A program made the position numbers and the translations under genes. From Nitrospinae bacterium CG22_combo_CG10-13_8_21_14_all_47_10 (GTDB lineage: Bacteria > Nitrospinota > Nitrospinia > Nitrospinales > VA-1): 25,449 bases of DNA. The notes below the pieces were generated by a model, which searched no databases, was not told the origin of the DNA, and saw only the letters and a list, made by a program, of their open reading frames with translations. Shown here in pieces: positions 14,083 to 23,957 of the stretch. Positions within the stretch are counted from its first letter, which is position 1. Every line of letters begins with the position of its first letter. The stretch covers positions 3,242-28,690 of the forward strand of contig PCTK01000057.1 of NCBI GenBank assembly GCA_002786505.1, written 5' to 3'.

Positions 14083-16014
14083 ATGCTGAGTACGATTCGA
14101 GAACATGCTGACTCCTGGATGATTAAAGCCATTCTGTGGCTGATCATTCTGGCCTTTGTGGGAACTATTTTCTATTCATGGGGCATGGGAGGTGCTTCCA
14201 GTTCGGGAGGAGGAGTCATTGCAACCGTACAAGGAGAAAAAATTTTCCAGGGCGAGTATGAGCGCACCTTTAATAATCTTGTGGAATTTTACCGGCAACA
14301 ATTCAAAAACCAGTTTTCAGACGAGATGATCAAAAAACTCGATTTGAAAACACAGGCCCTGGATGCTTTAATCCAGAAAAAATTATTACTGCAAGAAGCC
14401 GCAAAACAGAATTTGAGAATAAGTGATGCGGAACTAATTTCCCATATCCAGAACTTGCAGGTATTTCAAAGTGACAAAAAGTTCAGCGAAAAAGCCTATC
14501 GGGATTATCTTCAGTTTCAAAGAGTCACTCCTGGGGAGTTTGAAGACAATCAGCGCGAGAATCTGATTTTAAACAAGTTGGAAAAATTGTTTGAAACCAG
14601 TTCTAAAGTTTCACAAAGTGAAATCCTTGATGCCTTTAAAAACGAAGAAGAGAAAGCCAAGCTGGATTACGTGAGATTTAACAGCGACCACTTCCAGGTT
14701 GAAAAAACTTTTACGGAACAAGAAGTGAATGATTTTTTTCAAGCCAACAAAAAGCAATTTGAGATATCGCCGCAAATCCGGGTCGAATATATAAAAATTG
14801 AGCCCAAGACCTACCTTGCCGAAATTGAGCCCAGGGATGAAGATATAGAAGACTATTACCAGACCAAAATCGTGGATTTTCGCGTTAAAAAAATGTATCG
14901 TGCCAGCCATATACTTGCGCACATAAAATCATCTGAAATTGAAGGAGATGCTTCTGCCGAAGAAAAGCAGAAACAGGCTGAAGAAAAAGCAAAAACCCGT
15001 GCCACAGAACTTCTGAAAAAAATAAGGGCAGGAGCTGACTTCGGGGAAGTTGCAAAAAAACATTCCGATGATCCCGGCTCTGGTGCCCAGGGAGGGAGCC
15101 TGGGAGAGTTCCCAAAAGGAACCATGGTCTCTGCTTTTGAGTCCGCCTTGGACAAGTTGAAGGTTGGTGAAATCAGTGAACCCGTTTTAACTCCTTTCGG
15201 TTACCACATCATCAAACTGGAAGACAGCAAAGAGGAACGGATTAAACCCCTTGCGGAGGTGCGGGAAGAAGTCATTCAATCGCTGAAACAAATCAAAGCA
15301 CAACAAAGAGCCAGAAGGACAGCAAAACGAATTAATCAGGAGGCGGAAAAAGATGGCAACCTGAAATCAGCCGCTGAAAAAAACCAGGTTCAGACCACCA
15401 TCACCGGTTTTTTCTCAAGAGAAAACCACAATCTTCCAGAAATTGGAGACCAACCGCAATTCTTTAACACGGCCTTCAGCCTGGAGGAAAACAGGGTCAG
15501 CCAACCTATTCATACCCAGGAAGCATCTTTCATTTTAAAACTGGCTGGAAAAAAAGAGGCCTATATTCCAGAATTGGCCGAAGTCAGAAAACGTGTGGAA
15601 GAAACTCTGGTTGCACGCGTAAATGAGGAACTAACCTCATCCAGGTTCAAGGAACTGGAACAAAAGCTTGCAAAGGAAAAGGACCTGGAAAAAATCATTA
15701 AGGGGATGGATTTGAATGTCCGCCATACCCCATTCTTCAGCATGGAAGACTCTATTCCGGGGATTGGAAATATCAAAGAAATTAAGGAAAAAACTTTCGC
15801 TATGAATGTGGGCGATACCTCTTCCGCAAAAGTGAAAAACCGTTTCTACCTGTTTAAACGAGTGGGAAAAGAAGCCGCTGGCGAACCCGACAAAGAACAA
15901 TCTCAAAAAATTATCAAACGGATCAAACAGGAAAAAAACCGCCAAATATTTCAGGAGTGGGTAGAAAACCTGAAAGGCCGGGCAGAAATCTTGATCGACA
16001 AAACCTTGTTGTGA
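14083..16014 (+). CDS. ppiD: Membrane-anchored periplasmic chaperone / parvulin PPIase (PpiD, SurA_N + rotamase)
   Basis: MLSTIRE-TM helix N-terminus, IATVQGEKI, RASHIL, FGEVAKKHSDDPGS..GGSLG, GEISEPVLTPFGYHIIK. 643 aa from ATG 14083. Confidence 0.9.
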   Translation: MLSTIREHADSWMIKAILWLIILAFVGTIFYSWGMGGASSSGGGVIATVQGEKIFQGEYERTFNNLVEFYRQQFKNQFSDEMIKKLDLKTQALDALIQKKLLLQEAAKQNLRISDAELISHIQNLQVFQSDKKFSEKAYRDYLQFQRVTPGEFEDNQRENLILNKLEKLFETSSKVSQSEILDAFKNEEEKAKLDYVRFNSDHFQVEKTFTEQEVNDFFQANKKQFEISPQIRVEYIKIEPKTYLAEIEPRDEDIEDYYQTKIVDFRVKKMYRASHILAHIKSSEIEGDASAEEKQKQAEEKAKTRATELLKKIRAGADFGEVAKKHSDDPGSGAQGGSLGEFPKGTMVSAFESALDKLKVGEISEPVLTPFGYHIIKLEDSKEERIKPLAEVREEVIQSLKQIKAQQRARRTAKRINQEAEKDGNLKSAAEKNQVQTTITGFFSRENHNLPEIGDQPQFFNTAFSLEENRVSQPIHTQEASFILKLAGKKEAYIPELAEVRKRVEETLVARVNEELTSSRFKELEQKLAKEKDLEKIIKGMDLNVRHTPFFSMEDSIPGIGNIKEIKEKTFAMNVGDTSSAKVKNRFYLFKRVGKEAAGEPDKEQSQKIIKRIKQEKNRQIFQEWVENLKGRAEILIDKTLL

Positions 16015-16066
16015 TTCCAGTCTACAAAAATTCTTTACAACCCGATAAACAAGTTTAACTTTGAGT

Positions 16067-17425
16067 TCAGAGTGTTTTTTGGTACAGGTTGTGAATTTTG
16101 AGAATTTTATTGGTCAATGATTCAATATCCTCAGCAATGACCCGAATCATTTCTTCCTTTCTTATTCCCCCCAGATCGTAAATGATATCCGGCACCGAGC
16201 CATAATCCATAATTGCTTTTTGAGTACCCCATTCCAGGGAAGATCCCTCACGAACCCTTACATTCCTGGGTTCATCTGCCCTGTCAAAAGAAGCGATACG
16301 GAACCGGAGACGTTGACATATTTTCAACAATGTGTCCGTATATTTGATATTCATGACGGCGCGCTTTCCAGGGTCATAACGCATGACCGTTAAAACAATA
16401 TTTGCGACATGGCGGGAACCGCCAAACTCAGGCTCAGCACCGGTGAAAATATCATCCCCGTTTTTGACAATGCGCCCTGGAATGGCGAGGACATCCTCAT
16501 GATTTTTAGCATTTTTCAATGCCAACCCGATATTCGTTTGGACCTCGGGAACCAATGAACCGATTCTTTCTTTTCGAAATAACCGGAGCGCCCGATTCAA
16601 TCCGTCCATAACCTGGGCTTTTTCACTTTCCCTGTACAGTGAGGATAATGGGTCGACACTGGGCTTTCCATTCCCGGAAATCACTTCGCCAAGAATAGCC
16701 CGTCCAATAAAGGCCTTGGCTTCCTGGACTGCAGGCAAGGTCTGTAACCCGGAAGCCAGGCCTGCGGTAATCGCCGATGAAAAAACACAGCCTGTTCCAT
16801 GAGGGTCCGACTCCGATAAGCGCTCTGAGGTTAAAACCTGTAAACCATTATTATCCAGAAAAAGGTCTTCCGGTTTCCCTTTCAGGTGTCCGCCCGTCAA
16901 CACCACTGCCCGAACTCCCAATTTAAGGATTTTGCGTGCCGCACGTTTCATATCGGAGAGTTGGCGAATTTTTACCCCAGATAGTATTTCAGCCTCTCTG
17001 ATATTCGGAGTCACAAGATGTGCCAAAGGGAGCAAGCGTTCCTTCATCATCTCCACTCCCTCTGCGGTGAGCAGTCTTTTCCCTGAAGAAGAGAAAATAA
17101 CAGGATCAACAACCAGGTTTTTAACCCGGTAGCGTTTTAGCAGGGAAGCGATGCGGTCAACGATTTGCTCATTACCCAACATGCCTGTTTTTACAGCCTG
17201 GCATTTACCATCCTCAAAAATAGATTTTAACTGGCTCTCTACAACGCCAACCGGCAAATCATCCACAGCCTGAACTCCCAGGGTATTCTGGGAGGTAACC
17301 GAGGTGATTACTGTTTTGCCAAATACCCCAAAGGCAGAAAATGTTTTAAGGTCCGCTTGAATGCCAGCCCCACCTCCGGAATCCGACCCGGCTATCGTCA
17401 AAGCCACTACAGTTTTATCAGGCAT
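16067..17425 (-). CDS. thiD: HMP/HMP-P kinase (ThiD) fused to a ThiN-type thiamine-phosphate synthase (ThiDN)
   Basis: ThiD motifs TIAGSDSGGGAGIQADLKT, VKTGML, VVDPV, TPNIREA, HGTGC. C-terminal ~180 aa has LVPEVQTNI, IPGRI, PEFGGSRHVA, AVMNIKY, PDIIYDLGG..KE typical of ThiN. Confidence 0.9.
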   Translation of the reverse strand: MPDKTVVALTIAGSDSGGGAGIQADLKTFSAFGVFGKTVITSVTSQNTLGVQAVDDLPVGVVESQLKSIFEDGKCQAVKTGMLGNEQIVDRIASLLKRYRVKNLVVDPVIFSSSGKRLLTAEGVEMMKERLLPLAHLVTPNIREAEILSGVKIRQLSDMKRAARKILKLGVRAVVLTGGHLKGKPEDLFLDNNGLQVLTSERLSESDPHGTGCVFSSAITAGLASGLQTLPAVQEAKAFIGRAILGEVISGNGKPSVDPLSSLYRESEKAQVMDGLNRALRLFRKERIGSLVPEVQTNIGLALKNAKNHEDVLAIPGRIVKNGDDIFTGAEPEFGGSRHVANIVLTVMRYDPGKRAVMNIKYTDTLLKICQRLRFRIASFDRADEPRNVRVREGSSLEWGTQKAIMDYGSVPDIIYDLGGIRKEEMIRVIAEDIESLTNKILKIHNLYQKTL

Positions 17426-17463
17426 AAATAAATCTCTTGAATGTAAGAAAATAAGGAAGGTTT

Positions 17464-17493
17464 AATGTAACAGACCGTCTTGAAACCTGGCAA
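17464..17493 (-). promoter_or_regulatory. Putative internal sigma70 promoter for thiDN
   Basis: Minus strand TTGCCA, 18 nt, TACATT with an extended -10 TG, within the 85-nt glmS-thiDN gap. Confidence 0.5.
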
Positions 17494-17510
17494 TAAAATA
17501 TTGGGAATCT

Positions 17511-19331
17511 TCAGGCAACCGTTACAGATTTGGCAAGGGATCGGGGTTTATCGATATTACGCTTCAGCGAGGTAGCCGTAAAATATGCAAACAACTGCCC
17601 AATGACTAATTGAATCAAGGGAGCTGTCAAAGGTGGCACTTTGGGAAGAATCAGTTCTTCGCTATACAATGCTCCATTTTTTCCCTGCTCGGTGAAATGT
17701 ATTCCCAGAACAAAACCAGACCGGGCGCGAATTTCCTCTATGCTGTGCAGGGTAGCTTCATAAAGCGATTTATCCTCAGGGGGCGGGACAAACACTATTG
17801 AAGACACATCATCATCAATCATAGCCAGTGTTCCGTGCTTTAAAAATCCGCCGGGCATTCCTTCTGCATGGACGTAGGCAACCTCTTTCATTTTCAAAGC
17901 CGCTTCCAAGGCAATGGGATAATAAACTCCCCGCCCAAGATACAGCCAATTACGGGTCCCAGAATATTTATGGGCCAGACGATGAATAAAACCAGACCGT
18001 TCATTCAAAATTCCCTGAATAATTTCGGGAAGCTCCTGTAAAGCCCGCATATGCTGGTTATAGGTTTTTCGAGTGATCGCCTTCTTTTTCAAGGCAAGCT
18101 TCATGGCCAGCACGGTAAGTATCACCATTTGCGACACGGCGGCCTTGGTACTGATCACGCAGATTTCGGGCCCTGAGCCCTGAAGGACCACCTTATCAAC
18201 CAACCGGGCAATGGAAGAACCCATGACATTGACAACAGCCGCTGTCCGGGCTCCTTTGGACTTCGCATATTTCAAGGCCGAAAGAGTATCAAAGGTCTCG
18301 CCTGATTGCGAAGCGGAAAAAACCAGGGACTGCTTGTTTAAATTGGTCAACACCCTGAACTCATCGGAACTGATAGAGGGATAAAACTCCTGGGCTATCT
18401 GCGAAAAAACATATTTGGCATATTTGGCAACGTAAAAAGTAGTTCCCACTCCCAGCAAATAAGAGTTCTTGGATTTTGCAAACAACTCAACTATCTCATC
18501 CAGCCCTGAGGCTTCCAGATCCAACGCATTGGAAATAGTTTGAGGTTGTTCATAAATTTCCTTGAGCATGTAGTGGGGATAACCTCCTTTTCTAGAGGTC
18601 TCGCTGTCCCATTCAATTTTAGTAATGGGTTTGGTGATTTCCTCCCTGCTCAAAAGATTTTTCACGACATACGTGTCCCTGGAAAGTATGGCATATTCCC
18701 CATCATCCAGAATCACGGCATTTTTGGTATGATCAATGAAGGCGCTGAAGTCGGAACCTACAAATTTAATTTCATCGCCTATCCCCAGCATCAGCGGTGA
18801 TTCCCTTCTCGCGCAAAAAATCTGTCCAGGAAGATGGGAGGAAATAAACGCAATCGCATAGGTTCCTTCAATGAGGTTCAGCACCTTCACAAAAGCCTTT
18901 TCAATATCACGGCTACTTTTGTAAAATTTCTCCAGGAGGTGAGCAAGGACTTCGGTATCAGTTTCGGAAGAAAACTTAAAACCTTCCTTTTGCAGTTGAT
19001 CTCTCAAAGGACGAAAATTGGAAATGATCCCATTGTGGACCACAGCAAAATTCCCATCGTTTGAAGCGAAGGGGTGGGTATTATTCTGCGTTACTTTTCC
19101 GTGCGTAGCCCAGCGGGTATGGGCGATACCAATATTACTCTGTAATTGAAGAACATTGTGTTTGCGATAAACATCTTCCACACCACCAACATCCTTTTTG
19201 AGGATGAGGCGCGTTTTGTTCATCAAAGCCACGCCACAAGAATCATAACCCCTGTATTCCAGATTCCTGATTCCTTCAAAAAGAAGCTCAGATATATTTT
19301 TTAATCCAACAGCCCCGTTGATTCCACACAT
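17511..19331 (-). CDS. glmS: Glutamine--fructose-6-phosphate aminotransferase
   Basis: MCGI (catalytic Cys1), EYRGYDS, GIAHTRWATHG, HNGII, TDTE, SQSGET, STKA, ALKMKE, terminal PRSLAKSVTVA. Confidence 0.97.
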   Translation of the reverse strand: MCGINGAVGLKNISELLFEGIRNLEYRGYDSCGVALMNKTRLILKKDVGGVEDVYRKHNVLQLQSNIGIAHTRWATHGKVTQNNTHPFASNDGNFAVVHNGIISNFRPLRDQLQKEGFKFSSETDTEVLAHLLEKFYKSSRDIEKAFVKVLNLIEGTYAIAFISSHLPGQIFCARRESPLMLGIGDEIKFVGSDFSAFIDHTKNAVILDDGEYAILSRDTYVVKNLLSREEITKPITKIEWDSETSRKGGYPHYMLKEIYEQPQTISNALDLEASGLDEIVELFAKSKNSYLLGVGTTFYVAKYAKYVFSQIAQEFYPSISSDEFRVLTNLNKQSLVFSASQSGETFDTLSALKYAKSKGARTAAVVNVMGSSIARLVDKVVLQGSGPEICVISTKAAVSQMVILTVLAMKLALKKKAITRKTYNQHMRALQELPEIIQGILNERSGFIHRLAHKYSGTRNWLYLGRGVYYPIALEAALKMKEVAYVHAEGMPGGFLKHGTLAMIDDDVSSIVFVPPPEDKSLYEATLHSIEEIRARSGFVLGIHFTEQGKNGALYSEELILPKVPPLTAPLIQLVIGQLFAYFTATSLKRNIDKPRSLAKSVTVA

Positions 19332-19346
19332 ACTTATTTCGACCTG

Positions 19347-20552
19347 TTATTTATGTTTTACGGAGTAACATGCAGGAAGGACTTTGCCAGGCGCAACAAT
19401 CGTTCCGGGTTGAATGGTATTCCCGGCCCCGACAACAACCCCATCGCCGAGAAAAGCACCCAGTTTTTTCATTCCCGTTGCCATGGGCCGCTTCCCGTTT
19501 TTCACAGAAATCGGTTTCCAGTCTATGTCCCGGTTCACAGTCATGCACCCTGCCCCCATATCCACATTTTCACCCAGCACACTGTCGCCGACAAAAGAAA
19601 GCCTGCCTATCTGGGAATTATCCATCACTACACAGTTTTTTAATTCAACGCCACTGCCCACCGAACAATTTTTGCCAACAGAGGTATAGCTCCTGACAAG
19701 AGAGTTGTTGCCGATATAGCTTTTCTCTCCGATACAACAAGGCCCTTCCAGCACAGCACCCGATTTGATAATTGCCCCCGCCTCGATGCGGACAATCCCT
19801 TGCAGGGTCACATTGGCTTCCAGCGTTGCGTCTTTGGCAATGGAGGTCTCCTTCCAGGAATCCATGATCATCTTATTCGCCGTCAAAATTTCCCACGGAT
19901 AAACGACATCCAACCATTCATCTTCCCACATGGAGGCACGCAGTCCCTCCCCCGCAACCACTTTTTTCAACGCTTTCTCCATGGAGTTTCCTGAAGATTC
20001 CAACAATTTGAAAAAGGAGGCCGGCAATATGAATACCCCGGACAAAACATAATTCCCCAGGTTATTACCTTTGGGTTTTTCAACAATTTTTGTGATTTCC
20101 ATACGCGCATTCAGGAAAACATTGCCAAACATCTGGTTCGAGGGCGGCAAACATATAGAAGCCACCGGACATTTAAATGAATGAAAAGATTGCTGGATTT
20201 TGCTGAAGATATTATCCGCAGTCAGGATATCCCCGTAAGCAAGCAGGAAAAACTCACCTGGAAGAATTTTATTTTTAACCTGCAGAACCGCATGCCCGAT
20301 TCCCAGCTTGCGCTTTTGCTCCACGTGATGCAAATTCAACCCATTATGATCCTGTTGCTGAAGTTGTTCGATCAGCTTTTCCCTTTTGTGCCCCGCCACC
20401 ACAAAGATGTCATTGATGCCCGCGCTTTTAAGCAAACCAAAGGTATTGTCCAGTAAAGTACGCCCTGCAACTCCAATCATGGAGATGGGCCGGGTTTCTG
20501 AAAATGGACTGAGGTGAGCGCCTTCACCTGCGGAAAGGATTATGGCTTTCAT
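19347..20552 (-). CDS. Archaeal-type GlmU-like protein (nucleotidyltransferase fold + left-handed beta-helix) with substituted catalytic residues
   Basis: About 400 aa architecture MKAIILSAGEG...YGD...VEKP...WLD..YPW, hexapeptide repeats, and a GDS..GE...GAG....N...KLGAFLGD tail as in archaeal bifunctional GlmU. It has GAHL instead of GxRL, RPI instead of RPK, and RLSF instead of HLSY. Confidence 0.8.
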   Translation of the reverse strand: MKAIILSAGEGAHLSPFSETRPISMIGVAGRTLLDNTFGLLKSAGINDIFVVAGHKREKLIEQLQQQDHNGLNLHHVEQKRKLGIGHAVLQVKNKILPGEFFLLAYGDILTADNIFSKIQQSFHSFKCPVASICLPPSNQMFGNVFLNARMEITKIVEKPKGNNLGNYVLSGVFILPASFFKLLESSGNSMEKALKKVVAGEGLRASMWEDEWLDVVYPWEILTANKMIMDSWKETSIAKDATLEANVTLQGIVRIEAGAIIKSGAVLEGPCCIGEKSYIGNNSLVRSYTSVGKNCSVGSGVELKNCVVMDNSQIGRLSFVGDSVLGENVDMGAGCMTVNRDIDWKPISVKNGKRPMATGMKKLGAFLGDGVVVGAGNTIQPGTIVAPGKVLPACYSVKHK

Positions 20553-20595
20553 TTGAGAAAATCCTGATTGGGAAGGATAAAGTCAGCGACGAAGG

Positions 20596-21339
20596 TTAGC
20601 GATGATCCACCAGTAATCTCTCCGCCCGGTTCAAATCGTCTGGAGAATTGATTCCCAGTATCTCGTCGGCATCCTGAGTCTGAGTTGCCTGGACAGGATA
20701 CCCTTTTCGCACCAAATATTCTATCGTATCGGTCAAATAGTATTCCTTCTGAGCATTATCGGGGCTAATATGCTCTAAAGCTTTAAAAAACAAAGCACTG
20801 TCAAAACAATATACTCCGGAGTTAAATTCGTCAACTTTTTTCTCAACCTCCAACGCATCCTTGAGTTCGACGATTTTTAATATAGAACCTTTTTCATCAC
20901 GAATGATCCGGCCAAAATCATGGCATTCGCTACTTTTAAGGGTCAACACCGTACATTTTGCCCCACTCGCTTTATGCCCGGCAACCATTTTCAGCAGGGT
21001 ATTAGGCCTGATCAAGGGCATGTCCCCACATAACACTAAAACCAACCCGTCAAAGTTTTCCAGTTTAGCCTTGGCTTGTTGCGCGGCATGGCCGGTCCCC
21101 AACTGCTCTTTCTGAACCACGAACTCAACCTCCCGATCAGAAAAGGCTTCACGCACCTGGTCCGCCTGATGCCCCACCACGACTATTGTCCTGACGGGGT
21201 TCAATCGAGAGGAAAGGTCAAGTACATAATGAAGAAGAGGATGGCCTGCAACGGGGAGGAGAACTTTGGCAAGAGAAGACCGCATGCGGGTTCCCTTGCC
21301 CGCCGCTAAAATGATGACCGCTAGGTCTTGTTGTCGCAT
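20596..21339 (-). CDS. glmU: Stand-alone GlcNAc-1-phosphate uridylyltransferase (N-terminal domain of bacterial GlmU only)
   Basis: LAAGKGTRM..AKVL, QLGTGHA, CGDMPL, FGRI, IVE.KD, FNSGVY, NAQKEYYLTD, GINS are all intact. TAA stop at 247 aa in the linker helix, with no beta-helix domain. Confidence 0.9.
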   Translation of the reverse strand: MRQQDLAVIILAAGKGTRMRSSLAKVLLPVAGHPLLHYVLDLSSRLNPVRTIVVVGHQADQVREAFSDREVEFVVQKEQLGTGHAAQQAKAKLENFDGLVLVLCGDMPLIRPNTLLKMVAGHKASGAKCTVLTLKSSECHDFGRIIRDEKGSILKIVELKDALEVEKKVDEFNSGVYCFDSALFFKALEHISPDNAQKEYYLTDTIEYLVRKGYPVQATQTQDADEILGINSPDDLNRAERLLVDHR

Positions 21340-21602
21340 TTAATTTTATATTCGGCGATTTTTTTTCTTAACGTATTGCGATTGATTCCCAGAATATTTG
21401 CCGCCTTGGTCTGATTGCCGTCAGTTTCCTTCAGAACAATTTCAACAAGCGGTTTTTCAATGCCCCCCATGATAAGTTCGTGGAGATGGCCGTTGTTTTT
21501 TTCATCCATCGCACTGACATATTGACGGATGGATTTATCCAGCCATTTTTCTAAAAAAGTTGTGACTTGTTTTTGGGTTTTTTTCATTGCAGGGGGGTTC
21601 AT
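21321..21602 (-). CDS. Stand-alone Fis-family helix-turn-helix DNA-binding protein
   Basis: LHELIMGGIEKPLVEIVLKETDGNQTKAANILGINRNTLRKKI closely parallels Fis / the NtrC C-terminus. 93 aa (or start at 21587). The stop overlaps the glmU start by 19 nt. Confidence 0.9.
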   Translation of the reverse strand: MNPPAMKKTQKQVTTFLEKWLDKSIRQYVSAMDEKNNGHLHELIMGGIEKPLVEIVLKETDGNQTKAANILGINRNTLRKKIAEYKIKCDNKT

Positions 21603-21658
21603 ATTTACTTAGATATTGAAAATTGTGACGTCCTCCCCAGGGTCGCAAGTGGCTGAAT

Positions 21659-21693
21659 GCGGCGATAGTAACAAACTCATTGCATGCGGTCAA
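21659..21693 (-). promoter_or_regulatory. Putative sigma70 promoter with GC-rich discriminator for the fis-glmU-glmS unit
   Basis: Minus strand TTGACC (21693-21688), 17 nt, TACTAT (21670-21665), followed directly by CGCCGC. Confidence 0.65.
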
Positions 21694-21733
21694 GCACGGA
21701 CTCGCAGACTATTTAAAACCATGCAATTACAAG

Positions 21734-21763
21734 TTGATTCCTCTCCAATGCATGGTCTAAGAT
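21734..21763 (+). promoter_or_regulatory. Possible sigma70 promoter for mtaB-DUF62-smpB
   Basis: TTGATT, 18 nt, TAAGAT, back-to-back with the fis promoter. Confidence 0.45.
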
Positions 21764-21807
21764 GAAGAGGAAATTATCTAAAAACTTTTCCATACAGTTT
21801 TCTCTCC

Positions 21808-23127
21808 ATGAAAATCGCCTGTGTCACATTAGGGTGCAGAACCAACCAGCACGATACTGCGGAAATGCAGACCCTGCTTGAGCAGGAGGGTTTCTCTATC
21901 GTTAACGGTAAAGAAAAAGCCGATGCTTATGTCATTAATACTTGTACAGTGACACAACGAAGCGATTATAGTTCACGCCTTGCTGTTAAAAAATCCCTGG
22001 CGATCAACCCTGAAGCCCTCGTTGTGTTTACAGGATGCTATGCGCAGTTGAATCCCCAGGAAGTTTCCCAAATACAAGGTCTGGACGTTGTTCTTGGCAA
22101 TGCAGATAAACTTGAAATCGCTAACCTTATAAAAAAGAAACTTTTAAACCCCAGCCTGCCTTGGGGAAAAGGTGCGGACACCGAAATCATCATGTCCGAT
22201 ATCCATAAAAAGCGAATATTTCGGACCATCCCCGTGCAAAACTTTCAGGGCATGACTAAAGCCTTCATCAAAGTCCAAACCGGCTGTGATGAAAAATGTT
22301 CATTCTGCACCGTTGTTAAAGCGCGGGGTAAGTCAATCAGCGATACACGGGAAAATATTTTATACAATGTCCAACAATCCATTGATTCCGGGTTTAAGGA
22401 GGTCACCCTCACCGGAATCAACTTGGGTACCTGGGGCATGGATCGAAGTGAAACTTTCTCCTCCCTGGTTCGCGATATTGTTAAACTTTCGGGAGATTTT
22501 CGGGTTCGATTGAGTTCGATCAATCCAATGGAAATCGACAACGACCTTATACGGCTCATATCCGAAACTGAAAACCTCTGTTCGCACCTGCATATTCCCA
22601 TGCAAAGCGGTGATGATGCAATCTTGAAATCCATGCGCAGAAATTATAACCGCCAACAATATCTGGAAGTCGTTCACCGGGCAGTTAACGCCATTCCCGG
22701 ACTGGGGCTGGGAGCAGATGTTATCGTTGGCTTCCCCGGAGAAACTGAAGAACAATTTGAAAGCACCCGCGAACTAATAGAACAACTGCCGTTTTCCTAT
22801 CTACATGTATTTTCCTACTCACCACGACGAGGCACCGAGGCTCATCAGTTCAAGGATAATGTTCCCGGCAACATCAAGAAACAAAGAAACCAGACCCTGA
22901 CACAATTGGCCAACCAAAAAGCTTTGAAATACCGCGAGAAATTCTTAGGACAGAAGGAAACAGTCCTACTTGAAAATCAAAGGGACACTAAATCCGGATG
23001 GCTCAAGGGCCATACCGGCAATTACATCCCCGTCATACTGGAAGGTGCCGATGCATTGAAAAACAACCTGGTTCCAGTCACCTTACAGAAGATTTCCGAA
23101 AGTCAGGTCGCGGGATGCGTCCAGTAA
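21808..23127 (+). CDS. mtaB: tRNA t6A37 methylthiotransferase (MiaB-like radical SAM enzyme)
   Basis: TLGCRTNQHDT, INTCTVT (MtaB-type), TGCYAQ, radical SAM CxxxCxxC (GCDEKCSFC), LTGINLG, HIPMQSG, DVIVGFPGET, HVFSYSPRRGT, short TRAM-like C-terminus. Confidence 0.9.
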   Translation: MKIACVTLGCRTNQHDTAEMQTLLEQEGFSIVNGKEKADAYVINTCTVTQRSDYSSRLAVKKSLAINPEALVVFTGCYAQLNPQEVSQIQGLDVVLGNADKLEIANLIKKKLLNPSLPWGKGADTEIIMSDIHKKRIFRTIPVQNFQGMTKAFIKVQTGCDEKCSFCTVVKARGKSISDTRENILYNVQQSIDSGFKEVTLTGINLGTWGMDRSETFSSLVRDIVKLSGDFRVRLSSINPMEIDNDLIRLISETENLCSHLHIPMQSGDDAILKSMRRNYNRQQYLEVVHRAVNAIPGLGLGADVIVGFPGETEEQFESTRELIEQLPFSYLHVFSYSPRRGTEAHQFKDNVPGNIKKQRNQTLTQLANQKALKYREKFLGQKETVLLENQRDTKSGWLKGHTGNYIPVILEGADALKNNLVPVTLQKISESQVAGCVQ

Positions 23128-23957
23128 TCACACTCATCACCGACTTCGGCCTAGATGACCCTTTTGTCGGCATCATGAAAGGGGTCATTCTCAATATTGT
23201 GCCCGATGCCCAGATCGTTGACATAACTCACAATATCGAGCCGCAAAATATTACCCAGGCGGCGTTGACCCTAAACGCCACCTATCCCTGGTTTCCCAGA
23301 AAGACGATCCATGTGGTGGTTGTCGACCCCGGTGTGGGAGGTGGTTTTGCACCGCAAAGCAAGGTCTCCACAAAAAAAACCCGCGACCCCGGATTGGTAA
23401 TCCGACGAGCCATGGTCGTACAATCCAAATTCCAGACCTTTGTAGGACCCGACAATGGAGTACTCACTCCTGCTTTCTATCCTGATAGCAAGGCTTATGA
23501 GATCACCAATAAAAAATATTTTCTTAAAAAGGTTTCCAACACCTTTCACGGACGCGATGTATTTGCTCCCTGCGCGGGGTGGCTCGCCAGCGGTGTCCAA
23601 CCGGCCAAAATAGGACCTAGAGTGTTGAAGCCCGTCCACCAGGACCTTCCCAAGCCCCAGTTAAAAGGGGCAACCCTTCACGGAGAAATTATTCATATTG
23701 ATCGCTTTGGCAACCTCACCACCAATATTCCGGAAGAATTAATCCACGAAACCTTTATTTCTTCCGATACAATAAAGGTGCAGATCGGAAAGCATAGCAT
23801 TGATGGACTCGTCACCGGCTATTACCAGATGAAACCCGGTCAAGCCGGAGCCATCATCAACAGTTGGAACCATCTGGAAATCTTCTGCCGTGAAAACAAC
23901 GCCCAAAAAAAACTGAAAGCCAGGGTCGGGCAGTCCGTAACCCTGAAAACCAGCTAA
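23115..23957 (+). CDS. SAM hydroxide adenosyltransferase (DUF62; SAM hydrolase of the chlorinase/fluorinase fold)
   Basis: MRPVITLITDFG, VDITH, HVVVVDPGVG, RR, VGPDNG, SNTFHGRDVFAP, IHIDRFGNLTTNI, NSWNHLEI. The true start is ATG 23115, which overlaps the mtaB stop by 13 nt. Confidence 0.9.
   Translation: MRPVITLITDFGLDDPFVGIMKGVILNIVPDAQIVDITHNIEPQNITQAALTLNATYPWFPRKTIHVVVVDPGVGGGFAPQSKVSTKKTRDPGLVIRRAMVVQSKFQTFVGPDNGVLTPAFYPDSKAYEITNKKYFLKKVSNTFHGRDVFAPCAGWLASGVQPAKIGPRVLKPVHQDLPKPQLKGATLHGEIIHIDRFGNLTTNIPEELIHETFISSDTIKVQIGKHSIDGLVTGYYQMKPGQAGAIINSWNHLEIFCRENNAQKKLKARVGQSVTLKTS
23324..23397 (+). repeat. Direct repeat (12/14 nt) exactly 60 nt apart, flanking an in-frame loop insertion
   Basis: CGACCCCGGtgTGG at 23324-23337 and CGACCCCGGatTGG at 23384-23397, encoding DPG twice. 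Confidence 0.7.

Follow-up and report, generated by a model that had tools for sequence, protein, structure and literature searches.

The gene row around X401

The window analyzed here is a stretch of 25,449 nucleotides (nt) from Nitrospinae bacterium CG22_combo_CG10-13_8_21_14_all_47_10 (contig PCTK01000057.1, positions 3,242 to 28,690), whose source genome is a metagenome-assembled genome (MAG) of 249 contigs that is 87.6% complete. The subject of this report is a gene on the minus strand (19347-20552, stop codon 19347-19349) which encodes a paralogue of the Arch_glmU family of 401 amino acids (aa), in the following called X401. The gene lies in a row of five minus-strand genes in the order Fis-like helix-turn-helix (HTH) gene, GlmU-N, X401, glmS and thiDN. 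The first of these encodes a Fis-family HTH protein of 93 aa (21321-21602), with a promoter-like site beside it at 21693-21665. It is followed by the gene for a GlmU N-domain of the short bacterial type (GlmU-N; 247 aa, 20596-21339), a uridylyltransferase only, with the motifs AAGKGTRM..K, GTGHA, CGD and EYYLTD. Downstream of X401, a spacer of 15 nt (19332-19346) was read between the X401 stop codon and the start of glmS, the same distance as given in an earlier, model-made reading of the sequence alone (the original prediction). The glmS gene (17511-19331) encodes a canonical glutamine--fructose-6-phosphate transaminase of 606 aa (TIGR01135, 636.6 bits), and the row ends with a thiDN fusion (452 aa, 16067-17425) which is syntenic within the order. 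Minus-strand terminator-like sites were not found in a scan of positions 15900-22000.

The X401 open reading frame (ORF) is intact and uninterrupted, and both domains of the two-domain protein originally predicted were recovered by TIGR03992 and Pfam, the latter as NTP_transferase and Hexapep/left-handed beta-helix (LbH) domains. X401 scored 294.3 bits against TIGR03992 (Arch_glmU, cut-off 292.1 bits) and is thus a member of this family, if only just. The best solved relative was ST0452 of Sulfolobus tokodaii (2ggo/5z09, E 4e-49). Alignment with ST0452 and the conservation table described below assign residues 1-230 (19863-20552, minus strand) to a nucleotidyltransferase (NT)-like domain and residues 231-401 (19350-19862, minus strand) to an LbH domain. 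An AlphaFold2 model based on an alignment of 100 sequences reached a predicted local distance difference test (pLDDT) score of 93.6 and a predicted template modeling (pTM) score of 0.91, and found its best fold match in ST0452 (5z0a/2ggo), with a template modeling (TM) score of 0.87; the two-domain fold of TIGR03992, with a Rossmann-like NT domain and an LbH domain, is retained. Close relatives of X401 carry the source names 'bifunctional...' or 'GlmU protein'.

The Fis-family HTH gene overlaps the start of GlmU-N by 19 nt and is syntenic across the order; its product may regulate transcription of the glmU-N/X401/glmS row. Contigs from three groundwater metatranscriptome libraries span the row (16000-22000) with approximately 97-98% identity and a depth of up to approximately 126, although contigs from RNA libraries are no proof of transcription or of a single transcript. 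A close relative thus inhabits groundwater and contributes much nucleic acid to RNA libraries. Beyond the row, an ORF for an S-adenosylmethionine (SAM) hydrolase of the SAM_HAT family (22998-23957, plus strand) overlaps the 3' end of mtaB (21808-23127, plus strand) by 130 nt. Matches to the family begin only at residue ~44, and the true start is probably located further downstream.

Active sites, conservation and selection

The residues of X401 were aligned one by one with those of ST0452, and the alignment and the codons bear out the changes that had been read from the sequence in both active sites. In the NT domain, R13 and K23 of ST0452 correspond to H13 (codon 20514-20516) and I23 (codon 20484-20486), and the RGELELTD segment of ST0452, representing the (R/E)GExELTD type, is replaced by SSGNS..MEKAL, which is 6 residues shorter. 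In the LbH domain, the catalytic H308 is replaced by R317 (codon 19602-19604), Y311 by F320 (codon 19593-19595) and N322 by D331 (codon 19560-19562), corresponding to the predicted changes from HLSY to RLSF and from VNxGAG to VDMGAG. X401 therefore has neither the catalytic Arg (GxGxRL) and Lys of the TIGR03992 nucleotidyltransferase nor the His base and adjacent Tyr (HLSY) of its acetyltransferase. N331 of ST0452 is retained as N340, and the YGD, VEKP and WLD motifs are likewise kept, as originally noted. Further retained positions are Q79, G84, D108, G143, E158 and D215 in the NT-domain pocket and R287, E303, K305, N340 and K363 in the beta-helix. The functional roles of the replaced residues are taken from their ST0452 and Escherichia coli GlmU (H363) equivalents, together with the conservation table. 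By homology with the GlmU and ST0452 structures, the retained residues presumably line the pocket for uridine and sugar in the NT domain and include the ligands of the sugar phosphate in the LbH domain.

X401 has orthologues, 49-95% identical, in 115 of 120 Nitrospinota genomes, including all 57 of high quality. The motif GRLSF(V/I)GDS is invariant across 50 of these orthologues, whereas position 13 is occupied by H, N, K, G, D or R and position 23 by I, Q, L, N or K. A conservation table was compiled from the positions with a conservation of 85% or more among 52 canonical His-type relatives, for comparison with 34 sequences of the core clade to which X401 belongs. The catalytic Arg and Lys of the NT domain are 100% conserved in the His-type relatives. 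In the core clade, the catalytic and phosphate-handling residues R13, K23, G9 and T18 are variable (position 13: N 17, K 6, H 4, D 2, R 2, G 1; position 23: K 20, I 6, N 3, L 2, Q 1, A 1), as are E190 of the GE..TD segment and the acceptor-loop residues N331, L341, R342 and D344. Other changes are fixed in the core clade, namely H317 to R (34/34), Y320 to F (32/34), T85 to I, T192 to E and P282 to N, and Q79, G84, A88, D108, G143, E158, K159, W213, R287, E303, K305, N340 and K363 are retained. A kept pocket combined with lost catalytic residues is the pattern expected of a protein that binds a ligand without performing chemistry. The original prediction had framed X401 as a pseudoenzyme or re-specified protein and had proposed to check the conservation of its altered residues. 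The frame stands in that the canonical catalytic residues are absent, selection is strong and separate enzymes exist (see below), and R317 and F320 are indeed fixed; H13 and I23, in contrast, are not conserved among orthologues.

Purifying selection, which had likewise been proposed as a check, is evident from the ratio of nonsynonymous to synonymous substitutions (dN/dS). Within the genus it amounts to 0.059 for X401 (NT domain 0.060, LbH domain 0.062), about equal to that of GlmS (0.054), as compared with 0.152 for GlmU-N and 0.066 for the Fis-like gene; with dS at approximately 1 these figures are rough, but their ranking is clear. The damage to both catalytic motifs and the drift of positions 13 and 23 would also be compatible with a decaying pseudogene or a recently inactivated, functionless duplicate. 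The probability of this explanation is close to nil, however, as full-length orthologues down to 49% identity are present in every high-quality Nitrospinota genome, dN/dS is similar to that of GlmS, the model is of high quality and the synteny is conserved. Private decay, which the original prediction had named as a possible refutation, is rejected by the phylum-wide full-length orthologues and the low dN/dS. Retention of the fold, loss of the catalytic residues and purifying selection are the marks of non-catalytic NT-LbH regulatory paralogues, and all three are found in X401.

The wider family was searched for among 1.84 billion representative proteins, the motifs were tabulated and a tree was built. 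X401 falls into a clade of 14 representatives, all with Arg at the His position (support 100). The larger clade around it comprises no His-type, 28 Arg-type and nine Ser- or Gly-type representatives, and R13 is mostly lost therein; nearly all of the 91 His-type representatives retain R13 and K23. According to the source names of a handful of named sequences outside Nitrospinota, members of the wider clade are present in Heimdallarchaeum and Hodarchaeota. One core-clade member (P0135) comes from an entry for the freshwater mussel Potamilus streckersoni, where it is listed as a hypothetical protein on a contig of 322 kb; it probably represents bacterial contamination or a symbiont in that assembly.

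Separate enzymes for the GlmU reactions

A full-length GlmU scoring over the cut-off was found in none of the 120 Nitrospinota genomes, five closed genomes included. Instead, the short GlmU N-domain alone (model positions 2 to ~240) is encoded in 108 of them (55 of the 57 high-quality genomes). A stand-alone LbH protein of 267 aa is encoded at a second locus (genome G000, contig 49; L067:5858-6661, minus strand). It carries the canonical signature GHFNYIGDS..NLGAG..ANL, reaches 154 bits against the C-terminal half of TIGR03992 and resembles an N-terminally truncated Arch_glmU/alt_bact_glmU. Stand-alone canonical LbH proteins are present in 106 of the 120 genomes (56/57 high-quality). The gene for the 267-aa protein adjoins that of a 725-aa phosphohexomutase with GlmM as best match (L067:6956-9133, minus strand). 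A canonical GlmM over the cut-off was detected in none of four Nitrospinota genomes; a hidden full-length GlmU or canonical GlmM was accordingly discarded as an explanation. The pair of a long phosphohexomutase (588-795 aa) and a stand-alone LbH protein (~265 aa) is conserved between loci (L067, L068 and L154:8186-10767). The two proteins are likely to be the real glucosamine-6-phosphate (GlcN-6-P) mutase and glucosamine-1-phosphate (GlcN-1-P) acetyltransferase of Nitrospinota.

In the metagenome locus L154, which encodes a relative of X401 (P0131, 39% identical), the genes for GlmU-N, the X-like protein, GlmS, the long mutase and the canonical LbH protein stand in one row, in this order, which leaves no vacant enzymatic step for the X-like protein. 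Apart from X401, each step from fructose-6-phosphate to UDP-N-acetylglucosamine (UDP-GlcNAc) has a canonical-looking candidate. X401 thus co-occurs with catalytically competent counterparts (GlmU-N in 55/57 and LbH in 56/57 high-quality genomes), as is the case for regulatory paralogues. That X401 supplies the acetyltransferase of a GlmU split in two is disfavored by the canonical His-type LbH protein in 56/57 high-quality genomes and by the L154 operon.

One streamlined genome of the same genus (G054; 97% complete, 1.7 Mb) shows the row reduced to Fis-like gene, X401 and glmS (L037, contig 25). GlmU-N has been lost cleanly from this row, while the X401-glmS pair and the LbH protein were kept, and a copy of GlmU-N elsewhere in the genome was not found at E <= 1e-8. 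An NT-LbH protein with a 396-aa frame on contig 10 of the same genome is a candidate for UDP-GlcNAc synthesis there.

LbH N-acetyltransferases that act without a catalytic His exist (QdtC, WlbB), and X401 might be an enzyme with altered chemistry, in which Arg317 and Phe320 re-specify the beta-helix for another acceptor, another acyl donor or a base-independent acetyl transfer, and only the NT domain is vestigial. Such an enzyme would fit the invariance of R317 (34/34), the near-invariance of F320, the retention of R287, E303, K305, N340 and K363, and a constraint on the LbH domain equal to that on the rest of the protein (dN/dS 0.062). It is less likely because 56/57 high-quality genomes have a canonical His-type acetyltransferase, which in L154 is encoded in the same operon, because the acceptor-loop residues N331, L341, R342 and D344, conserved in the real enzymes, are variable in the X401 clade, and because sister lineages in the wider clade have Ser or Gly at the His position. 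The UDP-GlcNAc pathway, moreover, has no unfilled step, and we regard a re-specified enzyme as distinctly unlikely.

From its strong selective constraint, its place directly upstream of glmS and its loss of both catalytic sets, X401 probably serves the synthesis of UDP-GlcNAc, a cell-wall precursor, as a regulator or partner that binds a ligand, and not as the enzyme of its annotation. X401 passes the TIGR03992 cut-off and several sources name it a bifunctional GlmU, so that it will be credited in metabolic reconstructions with two activities that it almost certainly lacks. The same reconstructions will overlook the split pathway consisting of the long mutase, the stand-alone acetyltransferase and the short uridylyltransferase.

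Linkage to glmS and comparison with known systems

A locus search matched 399 relatives and 80 loci were kept, nearly all labeled as Nitrospinota, with a few other MAG labels. In 101 of 104 distinct Nitrospinota loci X401 is immediately followed by glmS, and in 92 of 100 it is immediately preceded by GlmU-N. Outside the Nitrospinota locus sets, 8 of 10 contexts have an X-like gene directly adjacent to glmS, with gaps of approximately 0-150 nt; these belong to the core clade (P0123 and P0127-P0132) and to the wider clade (P0134 and P0138). In P0134, glmS lies upstream of the X-like gene, and the Heimdallarchaeal context P0138 reads PGI, GlmS, a 49-aa ORF and X. The remaining neighbors of the pair are unrelated between contexts. 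For comparison, 80 metagenome loci of canonical His-type proteins were fetched, 58 of which had room on both sides, and glmS was directly adjacent in 2 of these 58; in one further His-type context, looked up separately, glmS was not adjacent. Ten of the 58 His-type loci (L181, L220, L224, L234, L238, L240, L241, L244, L245 and L246) encode a bifunctional GlmU, then a paralogue of ~392 aa and then glmS. This paralogue keeps the catalytic Arg and Lys of the NT domain while its beta-helix is devoid of any acetyltransferase residues, i.e., it is half-dead in a different way.

GlmS is known to be controlled by a ribozyme, by small RNAs, by GlmR or, in eukaryotes, by direct feedback, and each of these mechanisms is lineage-specific. 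None of the Rfam families, the glmS ribozyme included, had a match in the window. The GlmR/YvcK family (PF01933) was absent from five Nitrospinota genomes but found in 11 of 14 control genomes, and X401 itself has no PF01933 match and is not a GlmR/YvcK protein. On this evidence from the window and from five genomes, the glmS ribozyme and GlmR were rejected as resident GlmS regulators.

With this gene order in mind, we tentatively prefer to regard X401 as a subunit of the UDP-GlcNAc pathway that binds a ligand without catalysis and most likely acts on GlmS. X401 would have descended from an archaeal-type bifunctional GlmU and lost both GlmU reactions. A pathway metabolite, for which UDP-GlcNAc, GlcNAc-1-P or GlcN-P are the candidates, would bind to the relic uridine/sugar pocket (Q79, G84, D108, G143, E158) and to the sugar-phosphate pocket of the beta-helix (R287, E303, K305, N340, K363 and the new R317). 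Occupancy of these sites might then be relayed to the activity of GlmS as a protein-based feedback control, a role similar in function to that of GlmR or GMPPA but played on a GlmU scaffold.

Gene order is the whole basis of the link between X401 and GlmS, yet it is a strong one. Several observations nevertheless weigh against the preferred reading. The adjacency of the two genes could be inherited operon structure, and the His-type control set is not phylogenetically matched and may cover few lineages, so that the comparison with it is indicative only. The X401-glmS pair is broken in one deep Nitrospinota family (L062, L063, L151), the only such lineage in the phylum: X401 comes after GlmU-N there, but glmS does not come next. 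Nor is there a link to glmS in two Arg-type representatives that are more distant. The replacement of His by Arg alone does not prove X401 inactive, because base-less LbH N-acetyltransferases exist, and the invariance of R317 suggests a specific chemical role. By analogy, furthermore, the precedents of this fold regulate paralogues of their own fold and not an unrelated enzyme such as GlmS. To our knowledge, all known non-catalytic examples (GMPPA, KONJAC, GlgD and eIF2B gamma/epsilon) pair with or regulate such paralogues, and a partnership with the split GlmU would fit GMPPA, KONJAC and GlgD at least as naturally as a link to GlmS.

X401 might, in line with these examples, be a non-catalytic subunit that pairs with the stand-alone LbH protein, with GlmU-N or with both to a GlmU-like assembly under allosteric product control, comparable to the action of GMPPA on GMPPB, and its adjacency to glmS would then reflect co-expression only. 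Heteromers with catalytic paralogues are the setting in which all known non-catalytic members of this fold work (PMC11228364), and the X401 model matches structures of this kind (7d72, 8yre). X401, GlmU-N and the LbH protein co-occur throughout the phylum (57/57, 55/57 and 56/57 high-quality genomes), the genes for the X-like protein, GlmU-N and the LbH protein share one row in L154, and GlmU-N precedes X401 in most Nitrospinota loci (92/100). However, the pair that is conserved over divergent contexts is X401-glmS and not X401 with either of the other two, the Nitrospinota LbH gene is located at a separate locus, and G054 has X401 but no GlmU-N. Such an assembly is in our view the main rival to an action on GlmS, if a less likely one.

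The preferred reading of X401 as a subunit acting on GlmS can be extended to the family as a whole. An ancient family of doubly inactivated GlmU paralogues would then serve as a dedicated feedback sensor of GlmS in prokaryotes without the glmS ribozyme, GlmY/Z and GlmR. Its relic sites would bind UDP-GlcNAc or GlcN(Ac)-P, and GlmS would be tuned by a stoichiometric complex. The range of this putative sensor family would take in Nitrospinota and other bacteria for the Arg-type core, and Heimdall- and Hodarchaeota for the His-less relatives. In this full form the proposal is possible but somewhat unlikely. UDP-GlcNAc synthesis is essential for peptidoglycan and lipopolysaccharide, and how GlmS is controlled is a classic question of regulation. 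X401 points to a further protein-based GlmS control that would use a GlmU scaffold; its phylum, one of nitrite oxidizers, is of global importance, and relatives exist in Asgard archaea.

In the literature searched, no paper was found that describes a protein of this kind, and none joins GlmU with the term pseudoenzyme, or GlmS, GlmU and Nitrospina. Among characterized proteins, the archaeal bifunctional enzymes of the ST0452/TIGR03992 type are similar to X401 in two-domain architecture and length, but their R13, K23, H308 and Y311 have no equivalents in X401, and the X401 clade is without His-type members. The domains of bacterial GlmU (E. coli, Streptococcus pneumoniae) are homologous to those of X401, in which the sugar-phosphate ligands of the beta-helix are retained; the full-length form, however, is absent from Nitrospinota (0/120), where the activities reside on separate genes, and X401 lacks both catalytic sets. 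GlmR (YvcK) of Bacillus subtilis binds UDP-GlcNAc and modulates GlmS (PMC7525490, PMC6171935), but it has an unrelated fold (PF01933), and its likeness to X401 is limited to the hypothesized function. GMPPA of animals and KONJAC1/2 of plants share the NT and beta-helix fold with X401, the model of which matches the GMPPA/GMPPB complex 7d72 (TM 0.75) and the VTC1-KJC2 (KONJAC2) complex 8yre (TM 0.64-0.66). GMPPA is described as a non-catalytic protein that binds GDP-mannose, the product of its pathway, and regulates GMPPB (PMC11228364). Like the presumably inactive X401, GMPPA and KONJAC1/2 are inactive paralogues, in their case of the GDP-mannose pyrophosphorylase family, that are kept beside an active enzyme. 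They are eukaryotic, belong to the GDP-mannose pathway and pair with a paralogue, whereas X401 is a prokaryotic protein of the UDP-GlcNAc pathway in which two active sites are lost and whose gene is linked to that of the unrelated GlmS. A dead NT-LbH paralogue as regulator is thus a known concept; new are the loss of both sites, the setting in a prokaryotic UDP-GlcNAc pathway and the link to glmS.

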